A stretch of 64,000 nt of DNA from a virus. A model generated the notes under the pieces. The model did no database searches and was not told the origin of the DNA. It saw only the letters and a program-made list of their open reading frames with translations. Positions 1,251 to 63,738 of the stretch are shown in pieces; position 1 is the first letter of the stretch, and every line of letters begins with the position of its first letter. Position numbers and translations under genes: made by a program. The stretch is from IMG/VR virus record IMGVR_UViG_3300020048_000015, positions 64,001 through 128,000 of that record, one strand, 5' to 3'.

Positions 1251-1285
1251 AAAAAAGACCATTCATAACGAATGGTCTTTTTTTT
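1251..1285. terminator. Bidirectional intrinsic terminator
   Basis: aaaagaccattc-ataac-gaatggtctttt with A/T tracts on both sides, between convergent genes. Confidence 0.85.
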
Positions 1286-2513
1286 ATAATTCATCTAATA
1301 ATCTTTCTTTTACATTTACATTATAGTCTTTCCAACTCACAGAAGGTTCCCATCTATCATCAATTCTTATTTTCGGAATATCTATAATTCCTTCTGATAA
1401 AGAATGATTAAATATTTCTGATACTTCTTCTGTTCCTAAGTAATCAATAGTTTCTTCAATATTATCCATAATGCCATCAAAATTTGTTATATCAACTTTT
1501 ATCTCAATTGGACTACCATATTCAAATTTAATAATTTCACCATAATATTCTAATGTACTTTTCAATTCTTCAGAATAATAATCAACTGCTAAATCCACTA
1601 ACATATCATCTTCAGTCCAAGTTAATATATGCCTTATAGTATAATCATCATCCAATTCTTTAACCATATCTTCTAAATCATCATATTCTTCCAAATTATC
1701 TTTTTTACTTAGATAATCTTTAATAATTTTTTTATTATCATTATCCAAACAAGAACGCAAATTATATTCCCATTGTCCATCATAGCTATGATATTCTAAA
1801 TATACCCAGCCTTCACCATCCATTATTTTTTCAAATAAATCAGTATTAACATCAACATAATTTTTAATTTCATCTGGTCTTATTTTTAAAATAAAATCTG
1901 TTTTTAAATCACTACTTGATAAAATTCCTAATTCAATTAACTTAACCTTAGTGTTAAATGTATGGAATACTTCATCAGGAATATCTTCACCAAGTTCTTC
2001 ACTAAACACTTCTTCTAATAAATGTCTAACAATTTTACAATCTTTTCTTAAAAACTTATATGTATCTTGTAAATCCAAATATGTTTTTAAATCAGGGAAG
2101 AATTTATACAAATCATTTATTGGATTCATGCCACATTCAAATTCATCTACACCATATTCAGCAACACCATCCAATGTTGTTAGATAATTATAACTACAAT
2201 CATAATCACCATCTATATATTTTGGACCACCTTTTAAATCTGTTAGTTTATTTCCATAACATTTAAAATCACCACCAACTTCTTTAGGCGCACCATCTAA
2301 CGTAGTTAATTGATTATTAATACAATTAAAACTACCAGTTACCCTATTAAATTTAAGTGGCAGTTTAGTTAATTTTTCTTTTCCTAACCAAACATTATCA
2401 TCTACATCAATTGATCCATCTGGATTTATTGTGTAGTTTTGAATGTTATATTTTTTACAAATCTTATCAATTTCTGATTGATCAAAATTTTCAAATAATT
2501 TTAAATATTTCAT
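1284..2513 (-). CDS. Variable LRR-like family protein (3 repeats) fused to an unrelated acidic ~200-aa C-terminal domain
   Basis: MKYLKLFENF leader, N-cap (NYTINPDGSIDV..LTKLPLKFN), three 21-aa repeats, partial C-cap (QDTYKFLRKDCKIVRHLLEE), then non-family sequence. Confidence 0.85.
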   Translation of the reverse strand: MKYLKLFENFDQSEIDKICKKYNIQNYTINPDGSIDVDDNVWLGKEKLTKLPLKFNRVTGSFNCINNQLTTLDGAPKEVGGDFKCYGNKLTDLKGGPKYIDGDYDCSYNYLTTLDGVAEYGVDEFECGMNPINDLYKFFPDLKTYLDLQDTYKFLRKDCKIVRHLLEEVFSEELGEDIPDEVFHTFNTKVKLIELGILSSSDLKTDFILKIRPDEIKNYVDVNTDLFEKIMDGEGWVYLEYHSYDGQWEYNLRSCLDNDNKKIIKDYLSKKDNLEEYDDLEDMVKELDDDYTIRHILTWTEDDMLVDLAVDYYSEELKSTLEYYGEIIKFEYGSPIEIKVDITNFDGIMDNIEETIDYLGTEEVSEIFNHSLSEGIIDIPKIRIDDRWEPSVSWKDYNVNVKERLLDEL

Positions 2514-3129
2514 ATATAAGTATATCCTTCTATTTTTTCTGGTAATTCTACATTTTTATTATAATATTCACTAAAATCTTTAATTGCATCTTCTAATAAA
2601 TGTTTAACTACTTTACAATCTTTTCTTAAAAAATTAAATGTTTCTTGATAATCTAAATATATCTTAACATCATCAAATAAATCTATTATAGGGCTTATTG
2701 GATTATAAGAACAATAAAAATCCCCACCAACTTCTTTAGGACAACCCATTAAACTGGTTAATTGATTATAATCACAATAAAAATTCCCACCAACATAATT
2801 TGGACAACCAACTAAAGATTTTAATTTATTATCAGAACAATAAAATCCTCCACCAACATATGTTGGTGATCCATCTAAAGATGTTAAATTATTTATATAA
2901 CAATAAAAATCCCCAGAAACTATATTGAATTTAAGTGGAAGCTCTGTTAATTTTTGTTTTCCTAACAAAACATGACCATTTACATCAATAGATCCATCAG
3001 GATTTATTGTGTAGTTTTGAATGTTATATTTTTTACAAATCTTATCAATTTCTGATTGATTAAAGTTTTCAAATAATTTTAAGTATTTCATATATAAGTA
3101 TATCCTTCTATTTTTTCTGGTAATTCAAC
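2403..3129. repeat. 149-bp direct repeat (2403-2551 and 2981-3129) spanning gene junctions
   Basis: Hand alignment gives 6 mismatches in 149 bp. Covers the C-cap end of one gene and the leader/N-cap of the next. Confidence 0.9.
2510..3091 (-). CDS. Variable LRR-like family protein (3 repeats)
   Basis: Leader + N-cap + 3x LTSLxGxPxxVGGxFxCxxNx + C-cap ending ELPEKIEGYTYI. Confidence 0.9.
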   Translation of the reverse strand: MKYLKLFENFNQSEIDKICKKYNIQNYTINPDGSIDVNGHVLLGKQKLTELPLKFNIVSGDFYCYINNLTSLDGSPTYVGGGFYCSDNKLKSLVGCPNYVGGNFYCDYNQLTSLMGCPKEVGGDFYCSYNPISPIIDLFDDVKIYLDYQETFNFLRKDCKVVKHLLEDAIKDFSEYYNKNVELPEKIEGYTYI

Positions 3130-3609
3130 TGATTGATTATAATATTCATTAAAATCGTTTAAAGCTTCTATTAATCTATGTTTAATAATTTTACAATCTT
3201 TTCTTAAAAAATTATATGTTTCTTGATATTCTAAATAAGTCTTAATATTTCTATCAAATAAATTTATTATTGGTGTTATTGGATTATCACTACACACAAA
3301 ATAACCACCAACTTCTTTTGGACAACCATCTAAACTGATTAAGTTATTTTCTGAACAATCAAAATCCCCACCAACATAATTCGGACTTCCTTCTAAATTT
3401 GTTAATTTATTAATCCAACATATAAAATTCCCACTAACTCTATTAAATTTTAATGGGATTTCAGTTAGCTTTTTAAATGCTAAATCAATATTACCATTAA
3501 CATCAATTGATCCATCAGAATTTATTGAATAATTTTTTATCCCAAAGAATCTACACATAGAATCAATTTCTGATTTATTGAAGTTTTCAAATAATTTTAT
3601 GTATTTCAT
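3088..3609 (-). CDS. Variable LRR-like family protein (2 repeats)
   Basis: MKYIKLFENF leader, N-cap, 2 repeats, C-cap ending ELPEKIEGYTYI. Confidence 0.9.
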   Translation of the reverse strand: MKYIKLFENFNKSEIDSMCRFFGIKNYSINSDGSIDVNGNIDLAFKKLTEIPLKFNRVSGNFICWINKLTNLEGSPNYVGGDFDCSENNLISLDGCPKEVGGYFVCSDNPITPIINLFDRNIKTYLEYQETYNFLRKDCKIIKHRLIEALNDFNEYYNQSVELPEKIEGYTYI

Positions 3610-5106: not shown

Positions 5107-6360
5107 ATGAAACTAAAGAAATATTTAGAGTTTATAAAAGAAGAAGTGAGAATTTCAAATGTATATATACCAACGTATGAAGAATGTGTTGAGATATGCT
5201 CCCAGGATGAATCTCCTTTTTATGAAACTAAATTAATAGTTGAATCCTATCCTGTTTCGCTTTTCAACTATAGGTTAGCAAAATATAGCGATTTCGTTAC
5301 ACCTTTGCCTTCTAAACCAAGCGTCTCTGGAAAAGAAATGCGTGGTTTATCATTTGTTTTTAACACAGATGGAACACTATATAATAGATATGTTTTACTT
5401 GAAAAGTTTTTTAACTTAAATCAAGTTCCTGAATCTATGTATTCAGTTATAAAAAACTATAAAATAAAATTTGTAAATAACAAAGAAGATGGAAGCATTG
5501 CATCATTTATCAAGCTTCCAAATGGAAAAGTAGTTGGTAAATCTAAGATGGGATTTGACAACGAACAAGCTAATGGTATAAACTATGTTTATAACAACAG
5601 ACCGAAAATAAAAAAGTTTGTTGATTGGTGCTTAAACAATGACATCATACCAATATTTGAATATGTATCACCAGCAAACAGAATTGTTCTAAGATATTTA
5701 GATGAAGATCTAATCTTATTAAGAATGCGTGATAATAAAACAGGAAAACATATTGATTTAAAAAATCATATGGACAAAATCGGTTCTATTAAAATTGCAC
5801 CTTTTGAAGATGATGAAAAAGATTTGGATAAGTTAATTGAAGTAACTGCTACACAAGTAGATAAGGAAGGAATCATTGTTCAAACCGAAGATTCTAATGG
5901 AAATGATTTATTCTTTAAGCTCAAAACACCGTGGTATGTAGCTCGCCACAATTTATTAACAAATGATTTATATAGAGAAAATATATTAATCGGATATATC
6001 TTAGATGATATGATAGATGATTTGTTAGGGCAAATACCAGAAGATGAGAAAGATACCCACGAAAGAATCAATAAAATTATTAATATTGTTAAAAAAGTTC
6101 TTGACCAAAAAGTAAACGATATTAAAAAATTATACCAGGTTTTTGTTTCTATGAACAAAGATAGAAAAGAATTTGCTTTGAAATACTTTAAAGATAAAAA
6201 CTTTAGTTGTGTTATGTCTATGAACAAAGGTGTTGAACCATATGAAATTGCTAAAGATTGGCTAAGAAAGGAAACTGATAGACTTTTTGCAGCAAGAGAT
6301 TTTCTACAAAAAATAGATTCAACAATCTTTTTCAAAGATGCAACAGAAGATGATAATTAA
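5107..6360 (+). CDS. T4 Rnl1-family RNA ligase
   Basis: KEMRGLSF, LEKFFNLNQ, motif I NKEDGS, FEYVSPANRIV, KEGIIV, FFKLKTPWY. N-terminal MKLKKYLEFIKE leader. Confidence 0.9.
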   Translation: MKLKKYLEFIKEEVRISNVYIPTYEECVEICSQDESPFYETKLIVESYPVSLFNYRLAKYSDFVTPLPSKPSVSGKEMRGLSFVFNTDGTLYNRYVLLEKFFNLNQVPESMYSVIKNYKIKFVNNKEDGSIASFIKLPNGKVVGKSKMGFDNEQANGINYVYNNRPKIKKFVDWCLNNDIIPIFEYVSPANRIVLRYLDEDLILLRMRDNKTGKHIDLKNHMDKIGSIKIAPFEDDEKDLDKLIEVTATQVDKEGIIVQTEDSNGNDLFFKLKTPWYVARHNLLTNDLYRENILIGYILDDMIDDLLGQIPEDEKDTHERINKIINIVKKVLDQKVNDIKKLYQVFVSMNKDRKEFALKYFKDKNFSCVMSMNKGVEPYEIAKDWLRKETDRLFAARDFLQKIDSTIFFKDATEDDN

Positions 6361-7576: not shown

Positions 7577-7615
7577 AAATATACTTTCTGATTTTCAAAA
7601 ATAATATATATTTAT

Positions 7616-8263
7616 ATGAAATACTTAAAATTATTTGAAAACTTCAATCAATCAGAAATTGATGAAATTTGTAGAAAATATAACATAAAAAACTATACTA
7701 TAAATCCAGATGGTTCTATTGATGTTGATGGGAATGTTTGGTTATCCGATATAAGTTTAACTGAATTACCATTAAAATTTAATAAAGTTTATGGAAGTTT
7801 TGATTGTTCTTGGAATAAATTGACTAATCTAGAAGGATGTCCTAATTATGTTGGTGATAATTTTTCTTGTGTAGCTAATAAATTAACCAGTTTAATAGGA
7901 TGTCCGAATTATGTTGGTGGGAATTTTCATTGTAATGGTAATAAATTGACAAGTTTAGAAGGTTGCCCAGATGAAGTTCGTGGTAATTTTCGTTGTGGTG
8001 CAAACAAATTAACTTCATTAGAAGGTCCTAAAGAAATAGGTGGTGAATTTACTTGTAATAGCAATCCTATAAACTTTATAACAAGATTATTTGGTGATGT
8101 TAAGATTTATTTAGAATATCAAGAAACATATAATTTTTTAAGAAAGGACAATAAAATAGTTAGACACTTATTAGAAGAAGCTTTAAAAGATTATAATGAA
8201 TATTATAAAAAATATGTATCAATTCCAACAATCTATAAAATAAAAGGATATACTTATATATGA
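7616..8263 (+). CDS. Variable LRR-like family protein (4 repeats)
   Basis: Leader + N-cap + 4 repeats + C-cap ending KIKGYTYI. Confidence 0.9.
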   Translation: MKYLKLFENFNQSEIDEICRKYNIKNYTINPDGSIDVDGNVWLSDISLTELPLKFNKVYGSFDCSWNKLTNLEGCPNYVGDNFSCVANKLTSLIGCPNYVGGNFHCNGNKLTSLEGCPDEVRGNFRCGANKLTSLEGPKEIGGEFTCNSNPINFITRLFGDVKIYLEYQETYNFLRKDNKIVRHLLEEALKDYNEYYKKYVSIPTIYKIKGYTYI

Positions 8264-8964
8264 AATACTTAAAATTATTTGAAAACTTCAATAGATTAGA
8301 AATTGATGAAATTTGTAAAGAATATTGGATAGCCAATTATACTATAAATCCAGATGGTTCTATTGATGTTGATGGTGATGTTAATTTTTATAAATTAAAT
8401 TTAACAAAACTACCACTTAAATTTAATAAAGTTTCTGGTAGTTTTGATTGTGCAAAGAATCAATTAACTAATCTAGAAGGATGTCCAAAAGAAGTAGGTG
8501 GTTCTTTTGATTGTTCTTATAATAAATTAACATCATTAGAATGGTGTCCTAATCATGTAGATGGTAGTTTTTATTGTCATAATAATAATTTAACAAATTT
8601 AGAAGGCTGTCCAAATTATGTTGGTTGTGATTTTGATTGTGCTGGTAATCAATTAACCAATTTAATAGGTTGTCCTAATTCAGTTGGTGATTTAAATTGT
8701 TCTTGTAATAATTTAACCACTTTAGAAGGTTATCCAGAAGAAATTGATGGTGACATTTGGATTACCGATAATCCAATATATGATGTTGTATGTTTATTTA
8801 ATTGTATTGTTAGATATTTAGAATATCAAGAAACATATAATTTTATAAGAAAAGATGGTAAAATAGTTAGACACTTATTAGAAGAAGCTTTAAAAGATTT
8901 TAATGAATATTATGATAGATCAGTTGAACTACCAGAAAAAATACAAGGATATACCTACATATGA
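8260..8964 (+). CDS. Variable LRR-like family protein (5 repeats)
   Basis: Leader + N-cap + 5 repeats + C-cap ending ELPEKIQGYTYI. Confidence 0.9.
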   Translation: MKYLKLFENFNRLEIDEICKEYWIANYTINPDGSIDVDGDVNFYKLNLTKLPLKFNKVSGSFDCAKNQLTNLEGCPKEVGGSFDCSYNKLTSLEWCPNHVDGSFYCHNNNLTNLEGCPNYVGCDFDCAGNQLTNLIGCPNSVGDLNCSCNNLTTLEGYPEEIDGDIWITDNPIYDVVCLFNCIVRYLEYQETYNFIRKDGKIVRHLLEEALKDFNEYYDRSVELPEKIQGYTYI

Positions 8965-9371
8965 AATACTTAAAATTATTTGAAGATTATACAAATTTAT
9001 ATCAATCTGATATTATAAGAATACAATTAATTAATGATTTTTTAGAAAATTGTAAGGAAAATCCTGATTATAATATTGAATTACCTGATTATAATGACTT
9101 AATAGATGATTGGGATGGATATGATGACCAAACATATATACAAAATAATGGAAATGAATTTATATATTGGGAAGGTTGGGTAAGAGCTTGTTGGCAAGCA
9201 GCATATAAAAAACCGGAATATAAAGATTTGGGTAAAGATTTAATTATTGAAAAAATTATAAAAGAAAGATTCCCAAGAATAGCAGAAGAGGTAAATTATA
9301 AAATAAACAATTATGATTATTTCAGACATGATGGAATATATATAATGAAAATAACTTTTACTAAAACTTAA
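8961..9371 (+). CDS. Hypothetical protein with MKYLKLFE leader, non-LRR body
   Basis: Starts at the conserved YTYI-ATGA junction. Body unrelated to the family. Confidence 0.75.
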   Translation: MKYLKLFEDYTNLYQSDIIRIQLINDFLENCKENPDYNIELPDYNDLIDDWDGYDDQTYIQNNGNEFIYWEGWVRACWQAAYKKPEYKDLGKDLIIEKIIKERFPRIAEEVNYKINNYDYFRHDGIYIMKITFTKT

Positions 9372-14491: not shown

Positions 14492-14749
14492 ATGATAATC
14501 TCTGTATATAATATCAAAAGATCCGGCAAATCAATTTATGTTGAATTTACTGCTAATGAAAAAGATTTTTCTATTCTTGAATCTGGTTATGCTAAAGGCA
14601 AATATGTCTTAGCTGGTGATATTCAATGGGATAAAGATGAGTTTTCTGATGAAGAAAATGAAGTAATTCAATCTTTTCTTGACGAACAAGAAAACAACGA
14701 AGATGTAACAGAATCCCTTTGCGAAACTGCAAAATTTCTTGCTAAATAG
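14492..14749 (+). CDS. Acidic hypothetical protein
   Basis: 85-aa ORF. Confidence 0.7.
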   Translation: MIISVYNIKRSGKSIYVEFTANEKDFSILESGYAKGKYVLAGDIQWDKDEFSDEENEVIQSFLDEQENNEDVTESLCETAKFLAK

Positions 14750-14753
14750 TTTA

Positions 14754-15010
14754 ATGTTAAATAAACACCATACTAAAATAGTAAAATTAATATCAAATTC
14801 CTATAAGATAGAAGATAGAATTTATATAGTTCAAAAGTATGTAGATAGGTTTAATAAATCATCAGAAAATAACTATATGTCATTTTATAACAATTAAGAA
14901 TATATAGAACAGATTGTGGTTATAAGATTAAATCAGAAAGTTTTGATTTAAGTCAATATGTTGATATACAATTTATAAGAAATATTTTATTAGATATTTT
15001 ATTAGATTAA
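14754..15010 (+). pseudogene. Frameshifted small gene (MLNKHHTK...|...IRNILLDILLD)
   Basis: Frame stops at 14897, but one added base near 14890 gives a continuous 85-aa ORF ending at TAA 15008-15010. Could be a sequencing error. Confidence 0.5.
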
Positions 15011-15034
15011 AAATAAAAAAATAATTTAAACATA

Positions 15035-15154
15035 ATGAAAAAAATTAAAAGTAAAGCATTGCCAATAATTTGCACTTGCATAAAATGCCAACCAATGAGT
15101 TTTGATGAACAGTTGGAAAAGCCAGGAACAGTTTGTGTTATTAACAAAGGTTAA
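15035..15154 (+). CDS. Small Cys-containing hypothetical protein (39 aa)
   Basis: Read by hand: MKKIKSKALPIICTCIKCQPMSFDEQLEKPGTVCVINKG. Confidence 0.45.
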   Translation: MKKIKSKALPIICTCIKCQPMSFDEQLEKPGTVCVINKG

Positions 15155-15218
15155 TACTAACTGCAATAAAATCATTTTTCGTAAATTATATATAATTATA
15201 TATAAAAAAAAAATAAAT

Positions 15219-15593
15219 ATGATAAACTTAAAAACTTTTGAAAACTTTGGTTCTAATCAAGATCCAAAATTAGTAAGCGCAATTAAAAGAATTTGCACAA
15301 TGTATAAATCAGAATGCCAAGGTAGTTCTGAACATCCTTGTGAATACTTTGGGGATGGTTCTTATCTTAAAGAATTATCAAAAACTTGTAGTGACGAAAG
15401 TATTTCTGATATTTTAAATAGAATGGCTGATTATTCACGATATGATGATGAAGGTAGTTCAGAAGCTATTTTTGATTATATCAATGATGATGATTGTGAT
15501 TATATTGCTAAATTTCTAAACCTACCTGCTTTGGATTATGAAGGAGAATGGACTGATGATGAAGAAGATAATTGGTCACAAAGTATGTGGTAG
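15219..15593 (+). CDS. Acidic hypothetical protein with MINLKTFENF leader
   Basis: Start moved from 15102 to the leader ATG, which follows a TTATATATA motif. Confidence 0.75.
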   Translation: MINLKTFENFGSNQDPKLVSAIKRICTMYKSECQGSSEHPCEYFGDGSYLKELSKTCSDESISDILNRMADYSRYDDEGSSEAIFDYINDDDCDYIAKFLNLPALDYEGEWTDDEEDNWSQSMW

Positions 15594-15616
15594 TAATAAA
15601 TTTAGAAAGTGTCCTT

Positions 15617-15658
15617 AAAAATAAATCTGTAAATTTAAAAATTTACAGATTTATTTTT
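15617..15658. terminator. Bidirectional intrinsic terminator
   Basis: 20-bp arms aaaaataaatctgtaaattt-aa-aaatttacagatttattttt between convergent genes. Confidence 0.8.
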
Positions 15659-17861
15659 ATTTATTTTTGAATTTATGGTAATTAAGAATTAAATTTTCGT
15701 TTGATTTTTTTGATAGAAAATTTAAAATTTTCGTTTTGGCTTTTTCGTCTTTTATGTAATCAAAAATAAATTTATAAAATTTATTTGAATTATCAATAGT
15801 AATAAGTTTACTAAGTTCAATATTATCTATTTCTTCACTAAGTTTATCATTATTATCAACAAATAAAATTGTTCCATCTCCATTTATGATTTCAGAAATA
15901 AAATCAGTTACTTTTTCCAAATTATCTTTGCTAATAAAATTAAGTATCTTTTGTTTATCTTGTATGAAATACATTCCTATTATATAAGCTACAAAATTAT
16001 CACGACTTTGATTTTCACCTTTATCGTATAACCATTTTAATAATTCTTCTGGCTTATCATCCGGATAAGAAAGTTTAAAATATTCATACCTTTCTTCTGC
16101 ATTACTTGGATTACTTAAATTTGCCTTTTTTATTTCCTTTAGTTTATTAAGGAGATTTTTATCAGTTATTATATCAGTTATTATATCATTAATGTATTTT
16201 TCATCATCAGGAACTTTTGCCATAATTTCTGGATTATCTATTAAATATTCGGCTAATTTATTATTTTGTTTTTTATTTGAACTAAATAAACTTATAATAC
16301 TATATGGTGAAAAAATATTATTAGAAATTAATTTTATTATATCATTTGTGTCACATTTTAATATTAAATCTTCTAACTTTCCATAAATATAAATTGTGTC
16401 TTTAGGTAAAAAATTATTTTTATCTAAATATATTAGTAAAGCTTCTAATTTTTCACTGTTTTTTTCCTCCAAAGCTTTTATTATTGCATATTTACCTAAA
16501 TCTTCTTTGTAATGGTAACTTAAATCAGATACATTTTCTATTATTTCTGATAGACTTACAAAATCGTAGTAATACATATCTTTTAAACTATTTGGATATA
16601 TATCCACATATTTTTTTATCAATGATTTTTTTAAATTATCGTCTTTAAAATAATCATTGGACTTTAATTTTTGAATCTCATCTTTATTCTCTGAATCAAT
16701 TTCTTTCTTTATCTTATGTATGAATAAAATCATAGAAAGAGGTTCCGGAAATAGTCCATATAAATCAAAACTTTGTGAAAGTTTTGATATATTGTAGGAA
16801 ATAGAGTCTATATGATCTTTGGGTATTTCAAATTTTTTTAAATTAGGTTTAAATTCTAATATAAAATCTTCAATTTTTTTTATTTCTTCTTCACCCCCCC
16901 TATATAAAATTTTATATATATAATTATTTATTCGCTCGTCAAGAATAGAAACATCTTCATTATTTTTTTTATGATGAATGTAAATATCAAATATATCATT
17001 ATCATCAAGAATATCAAATATATTAGAATCTTTAAAAAAGTTTAAATCTTCTTTAAAAAGTGTATCCTTCAAGCCTTGACTTATTCTTAACTTACTAGCA
17101 GAATTATCTTTTTCATATTTTATATAATCTATTATTATTGATTTAAATTCATCAACCCTATCTCTACACACTACAAAAATACCATTACCAACAATTGAAT
17201 AAAAATCGGGATCAGTGGCTATTTTTGACCACACTTTTTTTGCTGATGAACTTGCATTATCTTTAGAACTTGCATACCCTAAATGTTTAATGAATTCTTC
17301 ATATATAATATAACCTAATCCAATACCCAGAAATTCATTTGGAATTCCACCACCAAAATGTGTTCTGTTATATTTTTCTTCATCATTGTGACCTATTGTT
17401 ATTACTATATTTTCCAACCTTTTAAAATCAACTTTATTTGGATCAAAATCTAAACTTTTGTATTTTTTATACAAATGCTCAAACCCCTTTGGAAATATCA
17501 CATCTCTTTCTTTAGGGATTCTTGAATCACCATTTCTATCACCTTTAGAAAATCCAGATTTATCATCATATGATTTTTTTATATCCAAATTTCTACCAAG
17601 TTCTTTGAAATTTTTTTTAAAATCTTCTGGGAAATTAACTTTAAAAGTGTTTCCAGTTCTTTCAAATTTCAATCCCCAATTAACACCACTCGTTTTTGAA
17701 GAATCTTCAAATGGTTTTCCATACTTTTTTCTTACTAAACTTAAATTTTTACCATCACTATAACCACTTGATTTTGGTTCAAGATAAGTTCCAATTAAAT
17801 CACTTGATTTTAATTCATAAATACTTTTTATGAAATTTTCAAATTTTTTTATTTTAGCCAT
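15657..17861 (-). CDS. Large protein with leader and a GNAT-like acetyltransferase segment
   Basis: MAKIKKFENFIKSIYE leader. IPNEFLGIGLGYIIYEEFIKHLGYASS...SAKKVWSKI resembles GNAT motif A/B. Remainder helical, unassigned. Confidence 0.55.
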   Translation of the reverse strand: MAKIKKFENFIKSIYELKSSDLIGTYLEPKSSGYSDGKNLSLVRKKYGKPFEDSSKTSGVNWGLKFERTGNTFKVNFPEDFKKNFKELGRNLDIKKSYDDKSGFSKGDRNGDSRIPKERDVIFPKGFEHLYKKYKSLDFDPNKVDFKRLENIVITIGHNDEEKYNRTHFGGGIPNEFLGIGLGYIIYEEFIKHLGYASSKDNASSSAKKVWSKIATDPDFYSIVGNGIFVVCRDRVDEFKSIIIDYIKYEKDNSASKLRISQGLKDTLFKEDLNFFKDSNIFDILDDNDIFDIYIHHKKNNEDVSILDERINNYIYKILYRGGEEEIKKIEDFILEFKPNLKKFEIPKDHIDSISYNISKLSQSFDLYGLFPEPLSMILFIHKIKKEIDSENKDEIQKLKSNDYFKDDNLKKSLIKKYVDIYPNSLKDMYYYDFVSLSEIIENVSDLSYHYKEDLGKYAIIKALEEKNSEKLEALLIYLDKNNFLPKDTIYIYGKLEDLILKCDTNDIIKLISNNIFSPYSIISLFSSNKKQNNKLAEYLIDNPEIMAKVPDDEKYINDIITDIITDKNLLNKLKEIKKANLSNPSNAEERYEYFKLSYPDDKPEELLKWLYDKGENQSRDNFVAYIIGMYFIQDKQKILNFISKDNLEKVTDFISEIINGDGTILFVDNNDKLSEEIDNIELSKLITIDNSNKFYKFIFDYIKDEKAKTKILNFLSKKSNENLILNYHKFKNK

Positions 17862-17902: not shown

Positions 17903-18121
17903 TTATAAATTTATTTTTTTTATATCATTAATACTAACATCATATGTCTTATTATCTATTTCAACTGTTACTTCATCACCATCTATGGAGATTGGTCTAA
18001 CTTCTGTTGGATTGTCAAATAAGCCTTTAACTATATTAGTTTCAATAGTTCCACCATTTTCTATACATTTTATAATATCTTCTGACTTTATATAATGTTC
18101 AAATACTTTGATATATCTCAT
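17903..18121 (-). CDS. Small hypothetical protein with leader
   Basis: MRYIKVFEHYIKSE, 72 aa. Confidence 0.7.
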   Translation of the reverse strand: MRYIKVFEHYIKSEDIIKCIENGGTIETNIVKGLFDNPTEVRPISIDGDEVTVEIDNKTYDVSINDIKKINL

Positions 18122-18178: not shown

Positions 18179-19354
18179 ATGTTTATAAAAAATTACAACA
18201 AATTCTTAGAATCTAAAAATCAAAAAACTATGTGGGACATAATTCCAAATTCAGTTAAAGTGTTACATAAATTATTTACAGCTAATAATAAAAAATTATA
18301 TGTTGTTGGTGGTGCTGTTAGGGATTTCTTAAATAACGAAAAACCTAAAGACTTTGACCTTTGTACTGATGCAACTCCAGATGAAGTTATTGATATTCTT
18401 AAAGATTACAAAACTAACCTTCAAGGTAAAGCATTTGGTGTTGTTGTAGTATTTACAGATGACCAACCTGAAGGAATGGAAATTGCAACTTTTAGAGAAG
18501 ATGTTTATGATACTAAATTAGGGAAATCAAGAAATCCAAATAGTGTTAATTTTACAACTATTGATAAAGATGTTAAAAGACGTGATATCACTTATAATGC
18601 TATGTTTTTTGATTTGGATAAAAAAGAAATTGTAGATTTAGTTGGCGGACAAGAAGATATTAAAAACAAAATTACCAAATTTGTTGGTGAACCTTCTGAA
18701 AGAATTATTGAAGATTCACTTAGAATCTTAAGAATTTTGAGATTTTCTTGTAGATACAATTTTTCCATTGATGAAAAAACTGCTGATGCAATTAAAGAAA
18801 ATGCTGATACCCTTAAAATAATTTCAAAGGAAAGAATCTATGATGAAATGAAGAAAGCTTGGAAACAAGCTAAATCATACACAACTTACCTTAACTATTT
18901 TATTGAGTTTGGATTATTTGAACATATATTTCCAAATGCTTTAGTAAATAAAGAAGTTAAAGATTGTAAGTTTTTTGTAACATATATTGCTAACCTTTTT
19001 AAAAATGATAAACTATCAGATTTAGAAAAAAGATTAATTCAAACATATAAATTTGATAGTGATGTTGTTTCTAAAGCATTATTCCTAATTAACTTAGTTA
19101 ATTTATCACCAGATAATGCATTCAACTTATTTAAAATGAAAAACTCTTCACATTGTGAAGATAGTGTTATCCTTGATTGGTTTAATATTAATGATTTAAA
19201 TGATAATATGTTCATTAAATTTTTAGAATATACACCAAGTGTATCTGCTGAAGAATTAATGGCTAAGGGGATAAAAGGAAAGGAATTAGGTGACACTATT
19301 AAAAGAATGGAATCTGATAATTTTAAAAAATTAATTGAAAAAAATGAAAATTAA
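18179..19354 (+). CDS. CCA-adding enzyme / tRNA nucleotidyltransferase (class II NTase)
   Basis: VVGGAVRD, KDFDLCT, EIATFRED, DVKRRDITYNAM, EDSLRILRILRF, ERIYDE. N-terminal leader MFIKNYNKFLES. Confidence 0.9.
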   Translation: MFIKNYNKFLESKNQKTMWDIIPNSVKVLHKLFTANNKKLYVVGGAVRDFLNNEKPKDFDLCTDATPDEVIDILKDYKTNLQGKAFGVVVVFTDDQPEGMEIATFREDVYDTKLGKSRNPNSVNFTTIDKDVKRRDITYNAMFFDLDKKEIVDLVGGQEDIKNKITKFVGEPSERIIEDSLRILRILRFSCRYNFSIDEKTADAIKENADTLKIISKERIYDEMKKAWKQAKSYTTYLNYFIEFGLFEHIFPNALVNKEVKDCKFFVTYIANLFKNDKLSDLEKRLIQTYKFDSDVVSKALFLINLVNLSPDNAFNLFKMKNSSHCEDSVILDWFNINDLNDNMFIKFLEYTPSVSAEELMAKGIKGKELGDTIKRMESDNFKKLIEKNEN

Positions 19355-23477: not shown

Positions 23478-23933
23478 ATGAAATATTTAAAATTATTTGA
23501 AAATTTTGATCAAACTAAAATTGATGCTATTTGTAAAAAATATGGTATATGGAATTATACAATAAATACTGATGGATCCATTGATGTTAATACTGATGTT
23601 TTATTATATAGAAGAAATCTAACTAAATTACCATTGAAATTTAATAGGGTTTCTGGTTCGTTCCATTGTCAGGATAATTTACTAACCAATTTAGATGGTT
23701 ATCCAAAAGAAATTGGTGGTTTTTCTTTTTATGATCATAATCCAATAACACAAATAATAGATTTATTTGTTAATGCTGACACATATATAGAGTACCAAGA
23801 AACATATAATTTTGTTAGAAAGGATTGTAAAATTGTTAAACACCTTTTAGAAGAAGCTTTAAAGGACTATAATGAATATTATAATAAGAATAAAAAATTA
23901 CCACAAGAAATAAAAGGATATACTTATATATAA
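23478..23933 (+). CDS. Variable LRR-like family protein (1 repeat)
   Basis: Start at MKYLKLFENF (not 23358). N-cap, 1 repeat, C-cap ending EIKGYTYI. Confidence 0.9.
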   Translation: MKYLKLFENFDQTKIDAICKKYGIWNYTINTDGSIDVNTDVLLYRRNLTKLPLKFNRVSGSFHCQDNLLTNLDGYPKEIGGFSFYDHNPITQIIDLFVNADTYIEYQETYNFVRKDCKIVKHLLEEALKDYNEYYNKNKKLPQEIKGYTYI

Positions 23934-24577
23934 TGAAATACTTAAAATTATTTGAAAACTTTGATCAATCAACAATTGATGATATATGTGAAGAATATGG
24001 TATAAAAAACTATACTTTAAATGCTGATGGATCTATTGATGTAAATGGTAATGTTTGGTTATTCTGTAAAGATCTAACTGAATTACCATTAAAATTTAAT
24101 AAGGTTACTGGTTATTTCAATTGTTCTGCTAATAAATTAACCAATTTAGAAGGTGCGCCTAATTATGTAGGAACTGGTTTTTTTTGTTTTAATAATAACC
24201 TAACAAGTTTAATAGGTGGTCCTAAAGAAGTCGTTGGTAAATTTTATATAAAAGGTAATTATTTAACCAATTTAATAGGTGGTCCTAAAGAAGTTATTGG
24301 GGATTTTGATTGCTCAGATAATAAATTAACTAGTTTAGATGGATATCCTAACTATATAAGTGGTTATTTTACTCGCAACGAAAATCCAATAGATACAATA
24401 ATTATATTATTTAGAGGTATTAAAACATATTTAGAATACCAAGAAACATATAATTTTATAAGAAAAGATGGTAAAATAATTAAGCATTTATTTGAAGAAG
24501 CAATTAAAGATTATAATGAATATTATGATGATTGTGTTGAAATGCCAGAAAAAATAGAAGGATATACTTACATATGA
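23933..24577 (+). CDS. Variable LRR-like family protein (4 repeats)
   Basis: Leader, N-cap, 4 repeats, C-cap ending EMPEKIEGYTYI. Confidence 0.9.
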   Translation: MKYLKLFENFDQSTIDDICEEYGIKNYTLNADGSIDVNGNVWLFCKDLTELPLKFNKVTGYFNCSANKLTNLEGAPNYVGTGFFCFNNNLTSLIGGPKEVVGKFYIKGNYLTNLIGGPKEVIGDFDCSDNKLTSLDGYPNYISGYFTRNENPIDTIIILFRGIKTYLEYQETYNFIRKDGKIIKHLFEEAIKDYNEYYDDCVEMPEKIEGYTYI

Positions 24578-35082: not shown

Positions 35083-35101
35083 TTAATTTAATATATAGAA
35101 T

Positions 35102-35350: not shown

Positions 35351-35352
35351 TT

Positions 35353-45635: not shown

Positions 45636-47090
45636 TCATATATTTCTATTTTGTTGTAATGATAATATAAAAAATATTATATAATCATAATATGATCTGG
45701 TTGATGATTTATAATAATCTTCAAATATATCACACTCTTTATACTTATAAAATGTTATTTCATTAAATATTTCACTTGAACTAATAGAGAAATCTATATC
45801 ATTCTTTGATAGAACGCTTAAAATATCTATCAGTGGATATTTCTTATTTACAAGAACCTTCAAATACATATTAGGATTTTCAATATTAGAATCATTATCA
45901 GTAAAGAAGTTAATTACTATATCAGATAAATCTCTTTGTGGATGTATAAACTTATAATAATCTTCCTTTCTGCTTTCTATTTGTTCCATAATTCGTTCTT
46001 GTGTATATCCTCTTTTATTAACATCTCTATCAATTTTCCACTTTGTTCTTAACTTAACATCAGAATCAATAAATATTTTCAAATTATATACATTATTATT
46101 CTTTGAATACAAGCTATGCAATCCACATACTATTATATTATCAGATGTGTCTATTTTTTCTTTTTCAGTGAACTTACCATTATCATGATTATAATCCACT
46201 TGGTATATGGTTTTCCCTATTTTTAAGTCAAAAATATCATTACTCATCTTCGTTATATAATTGGCATCTGGGTTAAGATGTGTAAACTTCTTCCAATTAT
46301 CATCACATCTTTCCCATTTATGATATCTATCACATTCCAACATAAAAGAATTATCAAAGTATTTTTTTAAAATATTACCAAATGTTGTTTTACCAGATCC
46401 AGAATCACCACATATGGCGAATACATTACACATAGATAGTATAATATTATACTCTATATCCAATAGTTTGTATTGTATTTTATTATCAGTCAAATAGTTA
46501 TACATAATTGATTCAGATATATATCCACATTTATTTGATATTTCATCAATACACTTATAGATATCAAAGTATCTATTCATAACATCTGATTTGCCATATG
46601 CAAATATATCACATAAGTTATTATCATCTTTATTTTGCAGCTTTGATGTGTCAATAATGCTATTTTTAGGAATATAAACAATATCCTTTTTAAAGTCTCC
46701 AATAAATATATCATCTGATATTAAATTTAAATCTGGTCTATACTTTATAACTAAATCATAATCACCATAAATAGATTCATTTATCTTTTTAATTTCATTT
46801 ATTTTATAATATTTCAACCAAAGATTTAATACACCATTCTTCTTTCTATCATCAGATAAAATAAAATTATCTTCATATAACAATGAAATAGGATTTAGTA
46901 TATTATTTATATAACTAATATCATCAATTTCATTTGATAGATTGAAATACCTATCATCAATATTTTCATTTTTTGTAATATGTATATAAACATCAACATT
47001 TTCAAATTTATCCAATATCTTACTTTTAATTAAAGGTATATTAACTTTAAAGCTTCTAAGATACCCAGATATTAATAGAGCTACTTTCAT
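45636..47090 (-). CDS. Fusion: glycan-related N-domain + uridine kinase/phosphoribulokinase-like P-loop domain
   Basis: AICGDSGSGKTT, CDRYHKWER, GLH, RDV.KRGY; N-domain D.VIKYRPD...DIFAYG. Confidence 0.8.
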   Translation of the reverse strand: MKVALLISGYLRSFKVNIPLIKSKILDKFENVDVYIHITKNENIDDRYFNLSNEIDDISYINNILNPISLLYEDNFILSDDRKKNGVLNLWLKYYKINEIKKINESIYGDYDLVIKYRPDLNLISDDIFIGDFKKDIVYIPKNSIIDTSKLQNKDDNNLCDIFAYGKSDVMNRYFDIYKCIDEISNKCGYISESIMYNYLTDNKIQYKLLDIEYNIILSMCNVFAICGDSGSGKTTFGNILKKYFDNSFMLECDRYHKWERCDDNWKKFTHLNPDANYITKMSNDIFDLKIGKTIYQVDYNHDNGKFTEKEKIDTSDNIIVCGLHSLYSKNNNVYNLKIFIDSDVKLRTKWKIDRDVNKRGYTQERIMEQIESRKEDYYKFIHPQRDLSDIVINFFTDNDSNIENPNMYLKVLVNKKYPLIDILSVLSKNDIDFSISSSEIFNEITFYKYKECDIFEDYYKSSTRSYYDYIIFFILSLQQNRNI

Positions 47091-48301
47091 TTTTTTAAAT
47101 ATTTTTTTAAATCATCTATGTTAAAATACCAAGATGAATTCAAACCATTGTCAATAGCTAAACATTCAGACTTATTAAATATCTTTTTATTTAATATCAT
47201 ATCACTATTCCAACCAGATACTTTCTTATCAGCATAAGAAACAAGTAATGAATTCTCATATATATCTTCAATTTCCCCAACTATATTATATTTTTCAACA
47301 CTAACCCTCATATATTTTTTCCAAAATTCAGATTCGGAATGATATGTTTCATTAAAGTATATTGTATCTACATTACTAAATGAATATTTAAATCTATTAT
47401 TTACTTCTAGAAATGTTGGTGATATCAAAGCTATTAATTTTGTATTCTTACCCGAAAATAAAACATTACACAACCCACCACCTATTGCACCAATTATACA
47501 TTCAGCATTAGAAAACATTAGTATCTTATGGATTGTACTTAAACTTTCTGTGAAGACCTCAGTATACCCATATTCTGAAAGTATATTTACCAATTCATCC
47601 TCGTTAATAAGTTTTCTTCTTGTTGTATAGTTTGTTCCTATATTTGATAAATCATTATTTACCCAAGTTCTTCTTGATATGTATATTTTTTTTGGTAGAT
47701 TATCAATATGATTAACCATCTTAATACTATCAACCATATCTTCATATAGTTTGTATATTTCTTTTCTAGGTGGTAGATTAGAATCAATATCATGTGTATA
47801 TGATGATGATATATAAATTGTACTATAAATTATATTTTCATCACCAATAACTATATCATTATCCTTTATTCCAAGAATATCTAATAATTCTGTTACAAAC
47901 TTATAGAATTTATCATTATTAGACTTCATAAGTAATTTTAAATTTGGAATATCTTCTTTAAGTTTATTATAAGAAATTAAATATGGAATAGTATCATATA
48001 TAAAATGATAGTAATTATCAACATTATAAATAAAGAAGAAAGTTGGTTCATCATATATTTTATTTAATACAACATTCTTATAGCCATATTCTCTATTGGA
48101 CTTAACTGACTTTAAAGACATTACATCTTCCTTAATAGGATTATACACTTCGTCATTTGAATGTAATAATATGTTTGGGTAATATAATGTATCACCTGTT
48201 AAATTAACATCTTCTATTTTATATATGTTAATTATTCTACCATTATCATCAATTGGTAAATACTCTGTTGATTTAATATCTTTTAATTCCTTTATAATCA
48301 T
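47087..48301 (-). CDS. GT61 (DUF563)-like glycosyltransferase
   Basis: NYYHFIYDTIP, KIYISRR, R.LINEDEL, IGAIGGGLCNVLF. Confidence 0.8.
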   Translation of the reverse strand: MIIKELKDIKSTEYLPIDDNGRIINIYKIEDVNLTGDTLYYPNILLHSNDEVYNPIKEDVMSLKSVKSNREYGYKNVVLNKIYDEPTFFFIYNVDNYYHFIYDTIPYLISYNKLKEDIPNLKLLMKSNNDKFYKFVTELLDILGIKDNDIVIGDENIIYSTIYISSSYTHDIDSNLPPRKEIYKLYEDMVDSIKMVNHIDNLPKKIYISRRTWVNNDLSNIGTNYTTRRKLINEDELVNILSEYGYTEVFTESLSTIHKILMFSNAECIIGAIGGGLCNVLFSGKNTKLIALISPTFLEVNNRFKYSFSNVDTIYFNETYHSESEFWKKYMRVSVEKYNIVGEIEDIYENSLLVSYADKKVSGWNSDMILNKKIFNKSECLAIDNGLNSSWYFNIDDLKKYLKK

Positions 48302-49290
48302 ATACTTCTAACATAATTAACTATATCATCCATATTTACATAAAATGGACTATTTGTGGAGTTTTTTGGATCAGTATTTATGTCTATGGATGGATATTTT
48401 ATCATATTGTAGTTTATATGTGTCCCAGTTAGCATATGACTAATATTAATATAATAGTCAACTCCAACCGGTCTATCATTTGATAATACAAGACATTTTT
48501 CTATACCATTTGCAAAGACAAAATTCATACAATTTGCACCCAATTGTGTTATCAAAACTTTAATATCTTTCATAAGATCAGCCTTTTCTGACATAGTTTT
48601 ATCACCAAGATTTATTATTTCAAAACCATTAGATTCTAAAAATGATATAATCTCAGATTCATTAACTATTTTTCTTGATATACCAACTTCCGTATTATTA
48701 AAATCAACATTAACAATCCCATCTTTTTTTAGATATACTTTTCTATATGGATTTGATTTATTTATATTTAATTTACTTCTAATTTTAGAACAAACATAGA
48801 CAACATCTTGATGAACATTTCCACCTGGAGCATGATAAATATTATCAATTGTATATAGATTTTTGAAATTATATAGAATGTTATCATCCAACATAATTAT
48901 TCTATCTTCTCTTATATCAAAGATATCCAACATCTCTCTACACATACTTGTGTATGTACTTCTAGGAATAACAATCTTCAAACTAGGATCATCTATTACA
49001 TACTTTAGTTTTGGAAGACACTGTGATACATAATGAGCAAAACTTATTTGATAATGAAATGAATAATAAAGTAAGCAATTTTCATCAACAACTACGTTAT
49101 TATAGCAACCATCAATAAGGTTACTTATTCTATCCGAATGTATATCACATGGAAATGTAAATTTTTGCATAAATGTATTATTTGAGTCAAATGCAAATAA
49201 TGTTTCCTTATTCTCCTCCCAATCATTATACTTAATATCAACACCATCCACAATATGGATTAATTTTATATTACTATGTTGTTTAATCAT
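48298..49290 (-). CDS. GT61 (DUF563)-like glycosyltransferase
   Basis: FAHYVSQCLPK, KVYLKK, R.IVNE.EI, TQLGANCMNFVF. Confidence 0.75.
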   Translation of the reverse strand: MIKQHSNIKLIHIVDGVDIKYNDWEENKETLFAFDSNNTFMQKFTFPCDIHSDRISNLIDGCYNNVVVDENCLLYYSFHYQISFAHYVSQCLPKLKYVIDDPSLKIVIPRSTYTSMCREMLDIFDIREDRIIMLDDNILYNFKNLYTIDNIYHAPGGNVHQDVVYVCSKIRSKLNINKSNPYRKVYLKKDGIVNVDFNNTEVGISRKIVNESEIISFLESNGFEIINLGDKTMSEKADLMKDIKVLITQLGANCMNFVFANGIEKCLVLSNDRPVGVDYYINISHMLTGTHINYNMIKYPSIDINTDPKNSTNSPFYVNMDDIVNYVRSI

Positions 49291-60541: not shown

Positions 60542-60545
60542 TTAA

Positions 60546-61307: not shown

Positions 61308-61370
61308 TTTATATTTATACTATTTTATTAATATATAAAAAATAATCATCTTTGTTTTAATATATACAAT

Positions 61371-62009
61371 ATGAAATACTTAAAATTATTTGAAAACTTT
61401 AATAATGTTCCATTTAAAGGGTTTTCTGATATTGTCAAATTTGATAATGTTAAAAAAAGAAATATAAATATAAATAATGAAAATCTAATAACAATAGATA
61501 ATGGAAAAACTGTTTTATTAAAAAAAGACACTACCTTATTAGCTAAAGTAATATATGATAAAATTGATGATAAGATTAGTATCAGTATGATAGAATCATA
61601 TGCAAGAGGATATGGGAAAATATTAATGCTTCATTTAATAGAAGAATATGGATATGATAACATCATCACAAAAGTATTAACTAAAGCTGGTCAAAAAATG
61701 ATGGATGATTTAAATGATTTATATAATTTTAAAAAACTATCAAACTTTTTAAATAGAAAAGATTTATTTAAAAGTATAAATGATCAATTAATAATAACTG
61801 TATTAGATAACATCTGTGAATATGGTATAAAAAACACTTTAAAAGCTTTCAAAAATGACATTATAGACAATAAAATAAATAATATAGATATAGAAACATT
61901 AGTTGACATATCATCTTGGATAGACGATTCAGTTCAAAATAATCATAGTATAGATGATAATATTCCAGATTATATCTATGATGAAATAGAAAAATTAAAA
62001 AACCGATAG
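61371..62009 (+). CDS. Leader-bearing protein with a GNAT-like segment
   Basis: MKYLKLFENF; ISMIESYARGYGKILM...LTKAGQKM resembles the GNAT acetyl-CoA motif. Confidence 0.55.
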   Translation: MKYLKLFENFNNVPFKGFSDIVKFDNVKKRNININNENLITIDNGKTVLLKKDTTLLAKVIYDKIDDKISISMIESYARGYGKILMLHLIEEYGYDNIITKVLTKAGQKMMDDLNDLYNFKKLSNFLNRKDLFKSINDQLIITVLDNICEYGIKNTLKAFKNDIIDNKINNIDIETLVDISSWIDDSVQNNHSIDDNIPDYIYDEIEKLKNR

Positions 62010-62029
62010 ATAATTCTATCGGTCTTTTA
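61997..62029. terminator. Bidirectional terminator
   Basis: aaaaaccgataga-taat-tctatcggtctttt between convergent genes. Confidence 0.85.
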
Positions 62030-62031
62030 AT

Positions 62032-63738
62032 TTATATGTAAGTATATCCTTCTATTTTTTCAGGTATTTTCATTATCTTAAGTTCCATCAAAGCATCACC
62101 TAAAAGATTCTTAACTATTTTACAATCATCTCTTAAAAAATTATATTTTTTCTGATATTTTAAATAATTATTAACATTTTTAAAAAGTTTATATACATTA
62201 TATATAGGATTTCCCATACCATAAAAATCACAACCACCCTTCATACGATTTACTATATTTGGGATACCATCTAAACTGGTTAATTGATTATTATTACAAC
62301 CAAACCTACCACTAACTGTTTTAGGACAACCTTCCAAACTTATTAATTTATTATCTGAACAATCAAAAAAACCAGAAAGTGTATTAGGACAACCTTCTAA
62401 AGAAGTTATTTCATTGAAAGAACAAACAAAATAACCACCTACTGTATTAGGACAACCATCAAGTGTGGTTAATTTATTATAATTACAATTAAAACCACCA
62501 TTAACTGTATTAGGACAACCTTCTAATGAGGTTAATTGATTATTATTACAATCAAAATAACCACCAACTTCTTTAGGACTACCTTCTAAGCTATTTATAT
62601 AATTATAACTACAGTCAAAATCACCACCAACATAATTAGGACTACCTTCTAAACCGGTTAATTGATTAGATCCACATTTAAAATTCCCCGAAACCCTATT
62701 AAATTTCAATGGAATTTTAGTTAATCCTTTATAATAAAAATTAACATCACCATTAACATCAATAGATTCATCCGAATTTATAGTATAATTATTAATATTT
62801 AATAGTTTTAATATTTCTTCAACTGCTAAACTATCAAAATTGTAATATGATTCTTCGTTATCATTATAAACATTCTTATGAACATCGTATTTTAAACTTT
62901 TTAAATCTTTATTAAAATGTTGATCTAATATATTCTGAACAGTTTTCTTAAATTCAGGTCTTTTAGTTCCATACATATTTTTACTTGGTAATAATATAAC
63001 ATCTTTATTTTCACCAACAAATGGTTTAATATTTAAAACTGCCAATGGCGATTCAATATTTCTATCAGTTAATTTCACTAAATAAGATATTAATGATCCT
63101 TCTTTTACTTCTTCTATAAGATATTTAATATTTACACCATCTTCTTTATAATCATTTATTTTATCTTTTAAATCTTTAATTTTATTTTGATCATCAGAAA
63201 ATTTAATTTTTTCCAATTCATCCATTAGCTTAGTTAATCTATTGGATTTATCAGTTCCAATGGTCATACAATTAGTCCAATCTCTATCTGTATCAGAACC
63301 AGCAATATCATATGGATGTCTTGAAATAACTACTAATAATTCATCTTTATCAGTTGACACCAATGTCTTTCTTTTTTCATCAGAAACAAATTGTTTAGAC
63401 AATTCTTCATTTTTAAATTTGTTTAATAATTTACCAATTGTAGATGTATTTTTAGCACTTCTAAATTTAGCTACACCTTTTACATAATCTACAATTTCAC
63501 AGTCATTTTCAGCCAAAAATTTATCTATTAATTCATGGGTTGTTGAAATATATCCAGTGACTTCTTCTTTAATCAACGGAATATATATTCTATAATAGTT
63601 TCTATCATTGCTGTATAAATCACCTAATTCTTTAAAAATATCAGCATATCTTTCCTTATCAAAAGCATCTACATATTTCCTAAATTGGGATGGCTTTAAT
63701 GCTTCATTAAAACCAATATAACTTTTTATATATTTCAT
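62032..63738 (-). CDS. Unknown ~300-aa N-domain fused to LRR-like family module (7 repeats)
   Basis: Leader MKYIKSYIGFNE; ISRHPYDIAG..W.NCM domain; then N-cap, 7 repeats (63-bp period measured), shortened C-cap ending EKIEGYTYI. Confidence 0.85.
   Translation of the reverse strand: MKYIKSYIGFNEALKPSQFRKYVDAFDKERYADIFKELGDLYSNDRNYYRIYIPLIKEEVTGYISTTHELIDKFLAENDCEIVDYVKGVAKFRSAKNTSTIGKLLNKFKNEELSKQFVSDEKRKTLVSTDKDELLVVISRHPYDIAGSDTDRDWTNCMTIGTDKSNRLTKLMDELEKIKFSDDQNKIKDLKDKINDYKEDGVNIKYLIEEVKEGSLISYLVKLTDRNIESPLAVLNIKPFVGENKDVILLPSKNMYGTKRPEFKKTVQNILDQHFNKDLKSLKYDVHKNVYNDNEESYYNFDSLAVEEILKLLNINNYTINSDESIDVNGDVNFYYKGLTKIPLKFNRVSGNFKCGSNQLTGLEGSPNYVGGDFDCSYNYINSLEGSPKEVGGYFDCNNNQLTSLEGCPNTVNGGFNCNYNKLTTLDGCPNTVGGYFVCSFNEITSLEGCPNTLSGFFDCSDNKLISLEGCPKTVSGRFGCNNNQLTSLDGIPNIVNRMKGGCDFYGMGNPIYNVYKLFKNVNNYLKYQKKYNFLRDDCKIVKNLLGDALMELKIMKIPEKIEGYTYI

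Follow-up and report, generated by a model that had tools for sequence, protein, structure and literature searches.

A shared N-terminal leader on unrelated proteins

In a 64,000-nucleotide stretch of viral DNA (the window; bases 64001-128000 of the 182,728-bp IMG/VR virus contig IMGVR_UViG_3300020048_000015), 24 of the 88 open reading frames (ORFs) begin with variants of one short peptide leader, which is probably a propeptide for capsid targeting of the kind borne by T4 internal proteins, in an enlarged system. The whole 183-kb contig carries 259 ORFs and has a G+C content of ~25% and a CheckV completeness of 84%. A megablast search with the window against deposited phages returned no near match. 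Comparison of the topoisomerase, the CCA enzyme, and other proteins places two "uncultured phage" genomes nearest among published relatives, LR756502.1 (642 kb; W01 below, in which 974 ORFs were scanned) and LR745206.1 (635 kb); W01 holds a homologue of 111 of the 259 contig ORFs. Signal peptides that end in AQ and the metagenome-assembled genome (MAG) labels of the few cellular matches suggest that the host belongs to the Bacteroidota.

The leader follows the consensus M-K-[YH]-[LI]-K-x-[FY]-x-x-[FY], often continued by [ILM]-x-E and then by S, G, N, or T. Two types are found at ORF starts, one resembling MKYLKLFENF and a looser one of the form K-x-[FY]-x-x-[FY]-[ILM]-x-E; MKIKRYKQFLES and MKLLNYLEFIKEG are further examples. 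Leaders are 10 to 17 residues long, and the protein fold begins at residue 12 to 22. With three regular expressions, we located the leader on 55 of the 259 contig ORFs and on 143 of the 974 W01 ORFs, compared with 2.5% and 1.1%, respectively, of internal-Met sequence windows. To avoid circularity, a hidden Markov model (HMM) was trained on the W01 leaders alone and then run on this contig. At a threshold of at least 10 bits, it recovered 47 of 259 N-termini (18%) but 4 of 733 internal-Met windows (0.5%), a ~35-fold enrichment, and at a threshold of at least 6 bits it recovered 25 of the 88 window ORFs. An earlier sequence-only reading of the window had reported about 28 leader ORFs, nine of them leucine-rich repeat (LRR) genes. 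The leader itself and the nine LRR paralogs held up, whereas the count came down to 24 solid cases and one doubtful one, a 54-aa ORF at 11453. The remaining 15 of the 24 have unrelated bodies, and on the contig as a whole ~18 of the 55 leader ORFs are LRR proteins.

A glycan operon of 24 genes (40725-61307, minus strand) served as an internal control. As the sequence-only reading had stated, none of its 24 ORFs carries the leader (hypergeometric p = 1e-4), and no leader was present on the topoisomerase, helicase, PolB, ClpB, or Hsp70 genes of the contig. The leader is not equally frequent on replication and glycan genes; equal frequency would, according to the same reading, have counted against it.

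The leader was kept, with sequence drift, on W01 orthologues whose bodies are 40 to 65% identical, among them Rnl1 (MKLKKYLEFIKEE here, MKKLHRYNSFIKES in W01), the CCA enzyme (MFIKNYNKFLES and MIITKYAKFLES), the 2H enzyme (MIIKKYKLFMES and MIKKYLEFMKES), Tpt1-like proteins, and others. The best 120 metagenomic CCA homologues listed carry M-[KI]-I-[KT]-[KR]-[YF]-x-x-F-L-E-S ahead of a conserved MWDIIP, except in three shorter gene calls, which begin at the MWDIIP Met or close to it; in more distant phages, the alignable part of the CCA enzyme begins only at residue 21 to 41. Members of the Tpt1-like family begin with MKLLNYLEFIKE followed by GLIKT or with MNHKFIETWSDFILNE followed by TLKT.

Using a back-translated pattern, MK[YH][LI]K[LF]FE[ND][FY], we searched IMG/VR and prokaryote genomes and found more than 116 matching stretches in the former and, in 596 Gb of the latter, nine, all in MAGs. 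At least 126 IMG/VR ORFs start with the leader; their bodies (median length of 164 aa) fall into at least 74 unrelated clusters. Every degenerate leader position shows synonymous codon variation while the residues are fixed, although this describes populated variants and gives no rate, because the search pattern was itself degenerate. Selection acts on the leader at the level of the peptide, which is conserved across many unrelated protein bodies within a clade of huge T4-type phages. Three CAVOPP01 contigs (275, 27, and 693 kb), binned as a Methanobacteriaceae MAG, also carry the pattern and are probably mis-binned huge-phage DNA.

Structure models separate the leader from the body that follows it. 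In the AlphaFold2 (AF2) model of the LRR paralog at 24574 (mean predicted local distance difference test [pLDDT] score of 92.9), residues 1 to 8 score below 50 and precede a first helix that begins at residue 12; in that of the Tpt1-like ORF at 30839, confidence is low over residues 1 to 20, and the folded part begins at residue 22. Leaderless members of the LRR family also exist, and these begin exactly where the leader ends and the fold starts. The leader is a detachable, unfolded, N-terminus-specific peptide module. A Sec, Tat, or lipoprotein signal peptide was ruled out by the lack of a hydrophobic core: a hydrophobic run within the first 45 aa occurs in one of the 55 leader proteins here and in none of the 143 in W01, and genuine signal peptides, present elsewhere on the contig, have a different appearance.

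Resemblance to the capsid-targeting sequence of T4

In the T4 genome (NC_000866), ipII and ipIII start with MKTYQEFIAE and ipI with MKTFKEFTST. In a blind scan of 262 T4 ORF N-termini with the leader HMM, gp61.1 ranked first and IPIII, IPII, and IPI ranked second to fourth, which amounts to one or two independent successes rather than three because IPI-III are paralogs. A further scan gave a similar outcome. The best T4 match, gp61.1 (18966-19130), is a hypothetical protein of 54 aa that starts with MKTFKEFIKED; by this start, it may be an unrecognized protein with a capsid-targeting sequence (CTS).

In the IPIII CTS, residues 4 and 7 (Y and F) are the main determinants of targeting and residues 8 and 10 (I and E) those of processing, and the protease gp21 cleaves after L/I-x-E (PMC9026906). 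The leader HMM aligns K-x-Y-x-E-F-I with the K-T-Y-Q-E-F-I of T4. Class-A leaders are defined in a way that leaves an aromatic pair at positions i and i+3 optional; 31 of the 33 have the pair, versus 20 of 204 non-leaders, and a hydrophobic-x-E motif lies within residues 4 to 18 of 46 of 55 leaders versus 66 of 204 non-leaders. The exact T4 spacing, [FYW]..[FYW][ILMV].E within the first 20 residues, was observed nine times on the contig, where 1.0 was expected, and 29 times in W01, against an expectation of 4.9.

Like the T4 CTS, the leader is a short, putative N-terminal propeptide on unrelated bodies, with an aromatic pair at i and i+3 and, in many cases, a hydrophobic residue and Glu after it; its phage lineage has a gp20 portal, S77 protease, and gp23 capsid, and its genes have a probable link to late expression. 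It differs in having three or four extra residues at its front (M-K-[YH]-[LI]) and in its cargo, which is acidic and includes enzymes of 400 to 700 aa and LRR binders. In this lineage, the protease is predicted to be fused to the scaffold. The likeness to T4 capsid targeting, already claimed in the sequence-only reading, is borne out by the blind ranks of the internal proteins, two virion proteomes, and the head genes of relatives, and further by the link to a late-type promoter and the unfolded state of the leader in models.

Other phages also package proteins with their DNA. In the phiKZ-like giants phiKZ, 201phi2-1, and SPN3US, ejection or inner-body proteins are processed at S/A/G-x-E by a gp21-related protease (PMC5694885, PMC9026906). 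Like the system proposed here, these giants package many proteins with the DNA and cut propeptides after Glu, and the cargo mass in their heads is large. Their propeptides, however, are mostly 80 to 130 residues long and share no portable motif, unlike the 10- to 17-residue leader here, and the present clade has T4-type gp23 and gp20, with no phiKZ hallmarks seen. A phiKZ-type long propeptide was ruled out by the leader length and by folds that begin at residue 12 to 22. The Dar antirestriction proteins of phage P1 counter host defense and are packaged in the head and injected with the DNA; their loading is hierarchical, via DarA, DarB, and Hdf, and not via a shared N-terminal peptide.

Tagged proteins in virions of cultured phages

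Two cultured T4-like phages connect leader-like starts with purified virions. The cyanophage S-SM1 yields one clear hit to the leader model among 239 ORFs, SSM1_190, which starts with MKKFSAFLNEA. This protein, T4-GC190, a "putative citidylyltransferase," was detected in purified virions by Sullivan et al. (PMC3037559). In Atu_ph07, a T4-like phage of 490 kb, three ORFs with [RK]K[FY]xNI[LI]xES take model ranks 2, 4, and 9 of 846, and their exact molecular weights identify them as gp33, gp206, and gp594. The published virion proteome (PMC6102473) includes each of them, with 6 to 21 peptides per protein; the chance probability of this is 0.006. Weaker Atu_ph07 matches lacking the full tag are mostly absent from the virion table of that study, so the model score alone is not a reliable predictor in this phage. 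Atu_ph07 differs from the present clade in having only three clear tags, so that its other cargo uses other signals, and the proteomics passages of the paper mention no targeting code (PMC6102473). The same passages report 131 virion proteins among 714 ORFs, most of them with no assigned function (PMC6102473), which shows that more than 100 virion proteins are not excessive for a huge T4-like phage.

Head genes of relatives and the upstream motif

Candidate readers of the tag come from relatives. The head genes of W01 lie side by side: a gp20-type portal gene (1e-57), a 699-aa ORF whose first 140 residues match Peptidase_S77 and whose remainder is repetitive, and a gp23-type capsid gene (4e-28). 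Two leader ORFs stand directly 5' of the portal gene, and one lies just past the capsid cluster. Among the matches listed, 25 leader-bearing IMG/VR contigs exceed 100 kb; gp23 occurs in 19 and the protease-scaffold ORF in 15, counts that stand without a base rate for random large viral contigs. When the W01 major capsid protein (MCP) was aligned to T4 gp23, no conserved L-x-E was placed at the T4 cleavage position. Within the window, a 230-aa ORF (39725-40417, minus strand) has a weak Gp23 (major capsid) match (1.4e-4), as does its 250-aa W01 homologue; both are near a conserved glycan-cluster gene.

The sequence-only reading had also proposed that the leader be correlated with an upstream promoter motif, and the two are indeed associated. 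Of the 55 leader ORFs, 27 have TAATATAT in the 70 nt upstream, versus 21 of 204 other ORFs (odds ratio of 8.4, p = 2e-9), and in W01 it lies upstream of 64 of 143 leader ORFs versus 110 of 831 others (odds ratio of 5.3, p = 2e-16). Leader ORFs lacking the motif are mostly inside tandem arrays behind an ORF that has it. In W01, TAATATAT also precedes the portal gene, as well as several genes in the neighborhood of the baseplate hub. Its likeness to the TATAAATA of T4 makes it a candidate late promoter. A TTAATATATA motif often ends 5 to 6 nt before the ATG (61354-61370, 35085-35101, and 7599-7615 of the window).

Candidate roles of the leader

If the leader acts as a capsid address, tagged proteins would, late in infection, bind through it to a scaffolding core that forms on the gp20-type portal from the protease-scaffold fusion protein. 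They would then be enclosed by the gp23-type shell, and the S77 protease would cut after Glu and free the cargo, which would remain in the head and exit with the DNA at the next infection. Such cargo would include RNA-repair enzymes (the Rnl1 ligase, the 2H phosphoesterase, three Tpt1-fold proteins, and the CCA-adding enzyme) that could counter host tRNA and mRNA nucleases before any phage gene is expressed, together with a library of LRR binders. Packaging, cleavage, and injection of the tagged proteins are what we infer by analogy with T4, and the delivery of dozens of injected enzymes is a well-founded hypothesis. We propose more tentatively, as a reading with somewhat less than an even chance, that a clade of huge T4-type phages, kin of the 635-642-kb genomes and probably living on Bacteroidota, has extended the capsid address code of T4 to 15-21% of its genes and so pre-delivers an RNA healing-and-sealing set and a diversified LRR binder library.

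Several observations weigh against the assignment to capsid targeting. Single T4 scores in the blind scan were small (7 to 11 bits). Most strict MKYLKLFENF leaders have no I/L-x-E at the T4 spacing, their sole candidate site being L-F-E at residues 6 to 8. The leader is on 15-21% of ORFs, far more than the handful in T4. The cargo bodies are acidic, with a median pI of 5.2 to 5.5 and residues 11 to 30 rich in Asp and Glu, whereas T4 internal proteins are basic. Leader proteins are also present in the baseplate module. Searches of the contig with the Pfam S77 and gp23 families and with the protease-scaffold protein of a relative found no S77 protease, portal, or full MCP, so that the tag reader is known only from relatives; the gp21-like protease that the sequence-only reading had suggested looking for elsewhere in the genome is missing from this contig and present in W01. 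Three of the 25 leader-bearing contigs, complete or near complete, have no S77 match, and one has no gp23 match. The closest cultured phage by capsid protein, the Tenacibaculum phage PTm1 (27.6% identity), has the fused protease-scaffold, yet a scan of its genome found no such leader.

Some of these points would fit a tag for a destination other than the capsid, such as docking on the Hsp70 or ClpB of the phage, timed degradation, another part of the virion, or an intracellular assembly site. We regard this as unlikely, though it is the alternative that survives best. The phage encodes DnaK-like and ClpB-like proteins, a second, C-terminal tag is present on leaderless LRR paralogs, and the leader proteins of the baseplate module and the acidic cargo would also suit such a destination. 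Set against this, no known chaperone or degron motif matches the leader, its motif aligns with the determinants of the T4 CTS, the virions of cultured T4-like phages contain their tagged proteins, and leader ORFs flank the W01 portal gene.

Still less probable is that the DNA, and not the peptide, is what counts. The leader would then be part of an expression cassette for near-leaderless late mRNAs, in which A/U-rich first ten codons aid translation start in a host that does not use Shine-Dalgarno sequences and the peptide has no role. TAATATAT most often begins 13-14 nt 5' of the ATG, and if the motif that ends 5 to 6 nt before the ATG is a -10-type late promoter, the mRNAs would be almost leaderless, which keeps this explanation alive; the leader DNA is also extremely A/T-rich, and promoter and leader often travel together. 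The residues are fixed, however, while the codons vary, with CAC, ATC, CTC, and GAG occurring in other contigs, and the diverged leaders of orthologues retain the aromatic pair and the Glu but not the DNA. The leader is also carried by operon-internal genes that overlap the preceding stop codon and lack their own promoter. Bacteroidota genomes are almost free of the motif, and the same class of peptide marks virion proteins in T4, S-SM1, and Atu_ph07, phages of different base composition.

That LRR paralogs sharing more than the leader (9 of 24 cases in the window) inflate the count, the rest being common MK... starts of an AT-rich genome, is very improbable given the 15 window cases with unrelated bodies, the 74 or more unrelated clusters in IMG/VR, the enrichment over internal-Met windows, the leaderless LRR paralogs, and a glycan operon of the same composition that has no leader.

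The capsid address reading has consequences for how such genomes are read. Full-text literature searches found no description of the leader for these huge phages. If the tag works as it does in T4, the injected payload of huge uncultured phages would be predictable from genomes alone, and hundreds of "hypothetical" genes would become a defined class, that of first-minute effectors. T4 must synthesize its RNA-repair enzymes after infection; pre-made RNA-repair enzymes delivered with the DNA would, if the reading is true, be a new counter-defense strategy. The T4 CTS works on GFP, and the present tag, being short and portable, would be a candidate signal for loading engineered cargo in Bacteroidota phages.

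Proteins that carry the leader

Among the enzymes behind the leader (window coordinates and strand throughout), the Rnl1, CCA/PolyA_pol, and 2H assignments of the sequence-only reading were each confirmed by Pfam. The Rnl1-type RNA ligase (5107-6360, plus; 417 aa; RNA_lig_T4_1, 4e-18) has a leader, MKLKKYLEFIKEE, with the exact T4 spacing. The CCA-adding/PolyA_pol enzyme (18179-19354, plus; 391 aa) starts with MFIKNYNKFLES, and its body runs from the conserved MWDIIP. The 2H phosphoesterase (31555-32097, plus; 180 aa; leader MIIKKYKLFMES) matches 2_5_RNA_ligase2 (3e-9) and, weakly, the Acb1 family (4e-4), which acts against the cyclic oligonucleotide-based antiphage signaling system (CBASS); by this second match, it could degrade a cyclic-nucleotide signal instead of, or besides, healing RNA ends.

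Two Tpt1/KptA-fold paralogs, of 243 aa (29844-30575, minus; MKLFIKKWSEFILNE followed by TLKT) and 239 aa (30839-31558, plus; MIKKFNEYLETLNE followed by GIIKT), had been called Tpt1-like. The call stands at the level of fold and not at that of sequence: Foldseek with the AlphaFold model of the latter (62 homologues; mean pLDDT of 84.6) gave Tpt1/KptA as top matches and ADP-ribosyltransferase toxins next, and the family has no Pfam, PHROG, or PDB sequence match. A leader-bearing P-loop ORF (contig 32298-32747) was considered as a polynucleotide kinase, which could not be shown, and a complete Trl1-type pathway is for that reason not claimed.

The methyltransferase and ParB-like labels of the earlier reading found matches, all of them weak, for a 226-aa ORF (26211-26891, minus; leader MKYLKLFENFDQSEID) and for a 127-aa ORF (38594-38977, plus; MMKYIKLFENF; PHROG, 5.5e-6), respectively. 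No GNAT match was found among the unannotated leader ORFs, and the GNAT-like label of that reading could not be verified. DUF5872 is split over two adjacent plus-strand ORFs (35102-35640), each with a leader: the N-terminal half (35102-35350; 82 aa) covers profile positions 1-47, and the C-terminal half (35353-35640; 95 aa; MEHILFFEEFIAES, 7.3 bits) covers positions 51-114.

The nine LRR proteins begin with a 409-aa ORF that has a long C-terminal extension (1284-2513, minus; MKYLKLFENFDQSEID, 17.8 bits) and two minus-strand paralogs beside it, of 193 aa (2510-3091) and 173 aa (3088-3609; MKYIKLFENF). On the plus strand are paralogs of 215 aa (7616-8263, with a TAATATAT-type motif upstream), 234 aa (8260-8964), 214 aa (23933-24577), and 173 aa (24574-25095, the one modeled with AF2). 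A truncated LRR ORF of 122 aa (26891-27259, minus) starts with MLYIKLFENF, and an LRR-containing protein of 568 aa (62032-63738, minus) carries the variant leader MKYIKSYIGFNEALKPSQF; the baseplate module holds a paralog of it, and W01 has an orthologue. Leaderless LRR paralogs (L001:3423-6587 and L002:1961-2521) end in a short helix, R-L-N-R-E-x-K-L-N-x-L-L, where leader-bearing paralogs have a long YQETYNFLRKD...EGYTYI cap instead, and the N-terminal leader and C-terminal helix tag appear mutually exclusive.

Six further leader ORFs complete the set. Unannotated bodies follow the leader at 8961-9371 (plus; 136 aa; MKYLKLFEDY), 15657-17861 (minus; 734 aa; MAKIKKFENFIKS, 13.2 bits), 39013-39369 (plus; 118 aa; MKHIKLFENFDEKDG, 18.8 bits), and 61371-62009 (plus; 212 aa; MKYLKLFENFNNVPF, 20.6 bits), the last with the upstream motif 5-6 nt 5' of its ATG. 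The two others are short ORFs of 72 aa (17903-18121, minus; MRYIKVFEHYIKSE), whose W01 orthologue starts with MKWIKLFEDF, and 81 aa (30610-30855, plus; MENILKFKDFIREG).

Other genes on the contig

The Hsp70/DnaK gene is split between window positions 1-1248 (plus) and contig positions 63092-63667 just upstream, the two ORFs being ~315 nt apart; in W01, a single 627-aa ORF spans both parts, and the gap may hold an intron or other insertion. The large subunit of topoisomerase II is likewise divided into two ORFs (contig 46280-48933), both of which align to a single W01 ORF, over its residues 3-423 and 415-615. The family B DNA polymerase contains an intein, and two large HNH/homing-endonuclease ORFs lie nearby (L005:13888-15813; L006:3759-5621, 14557-16311).

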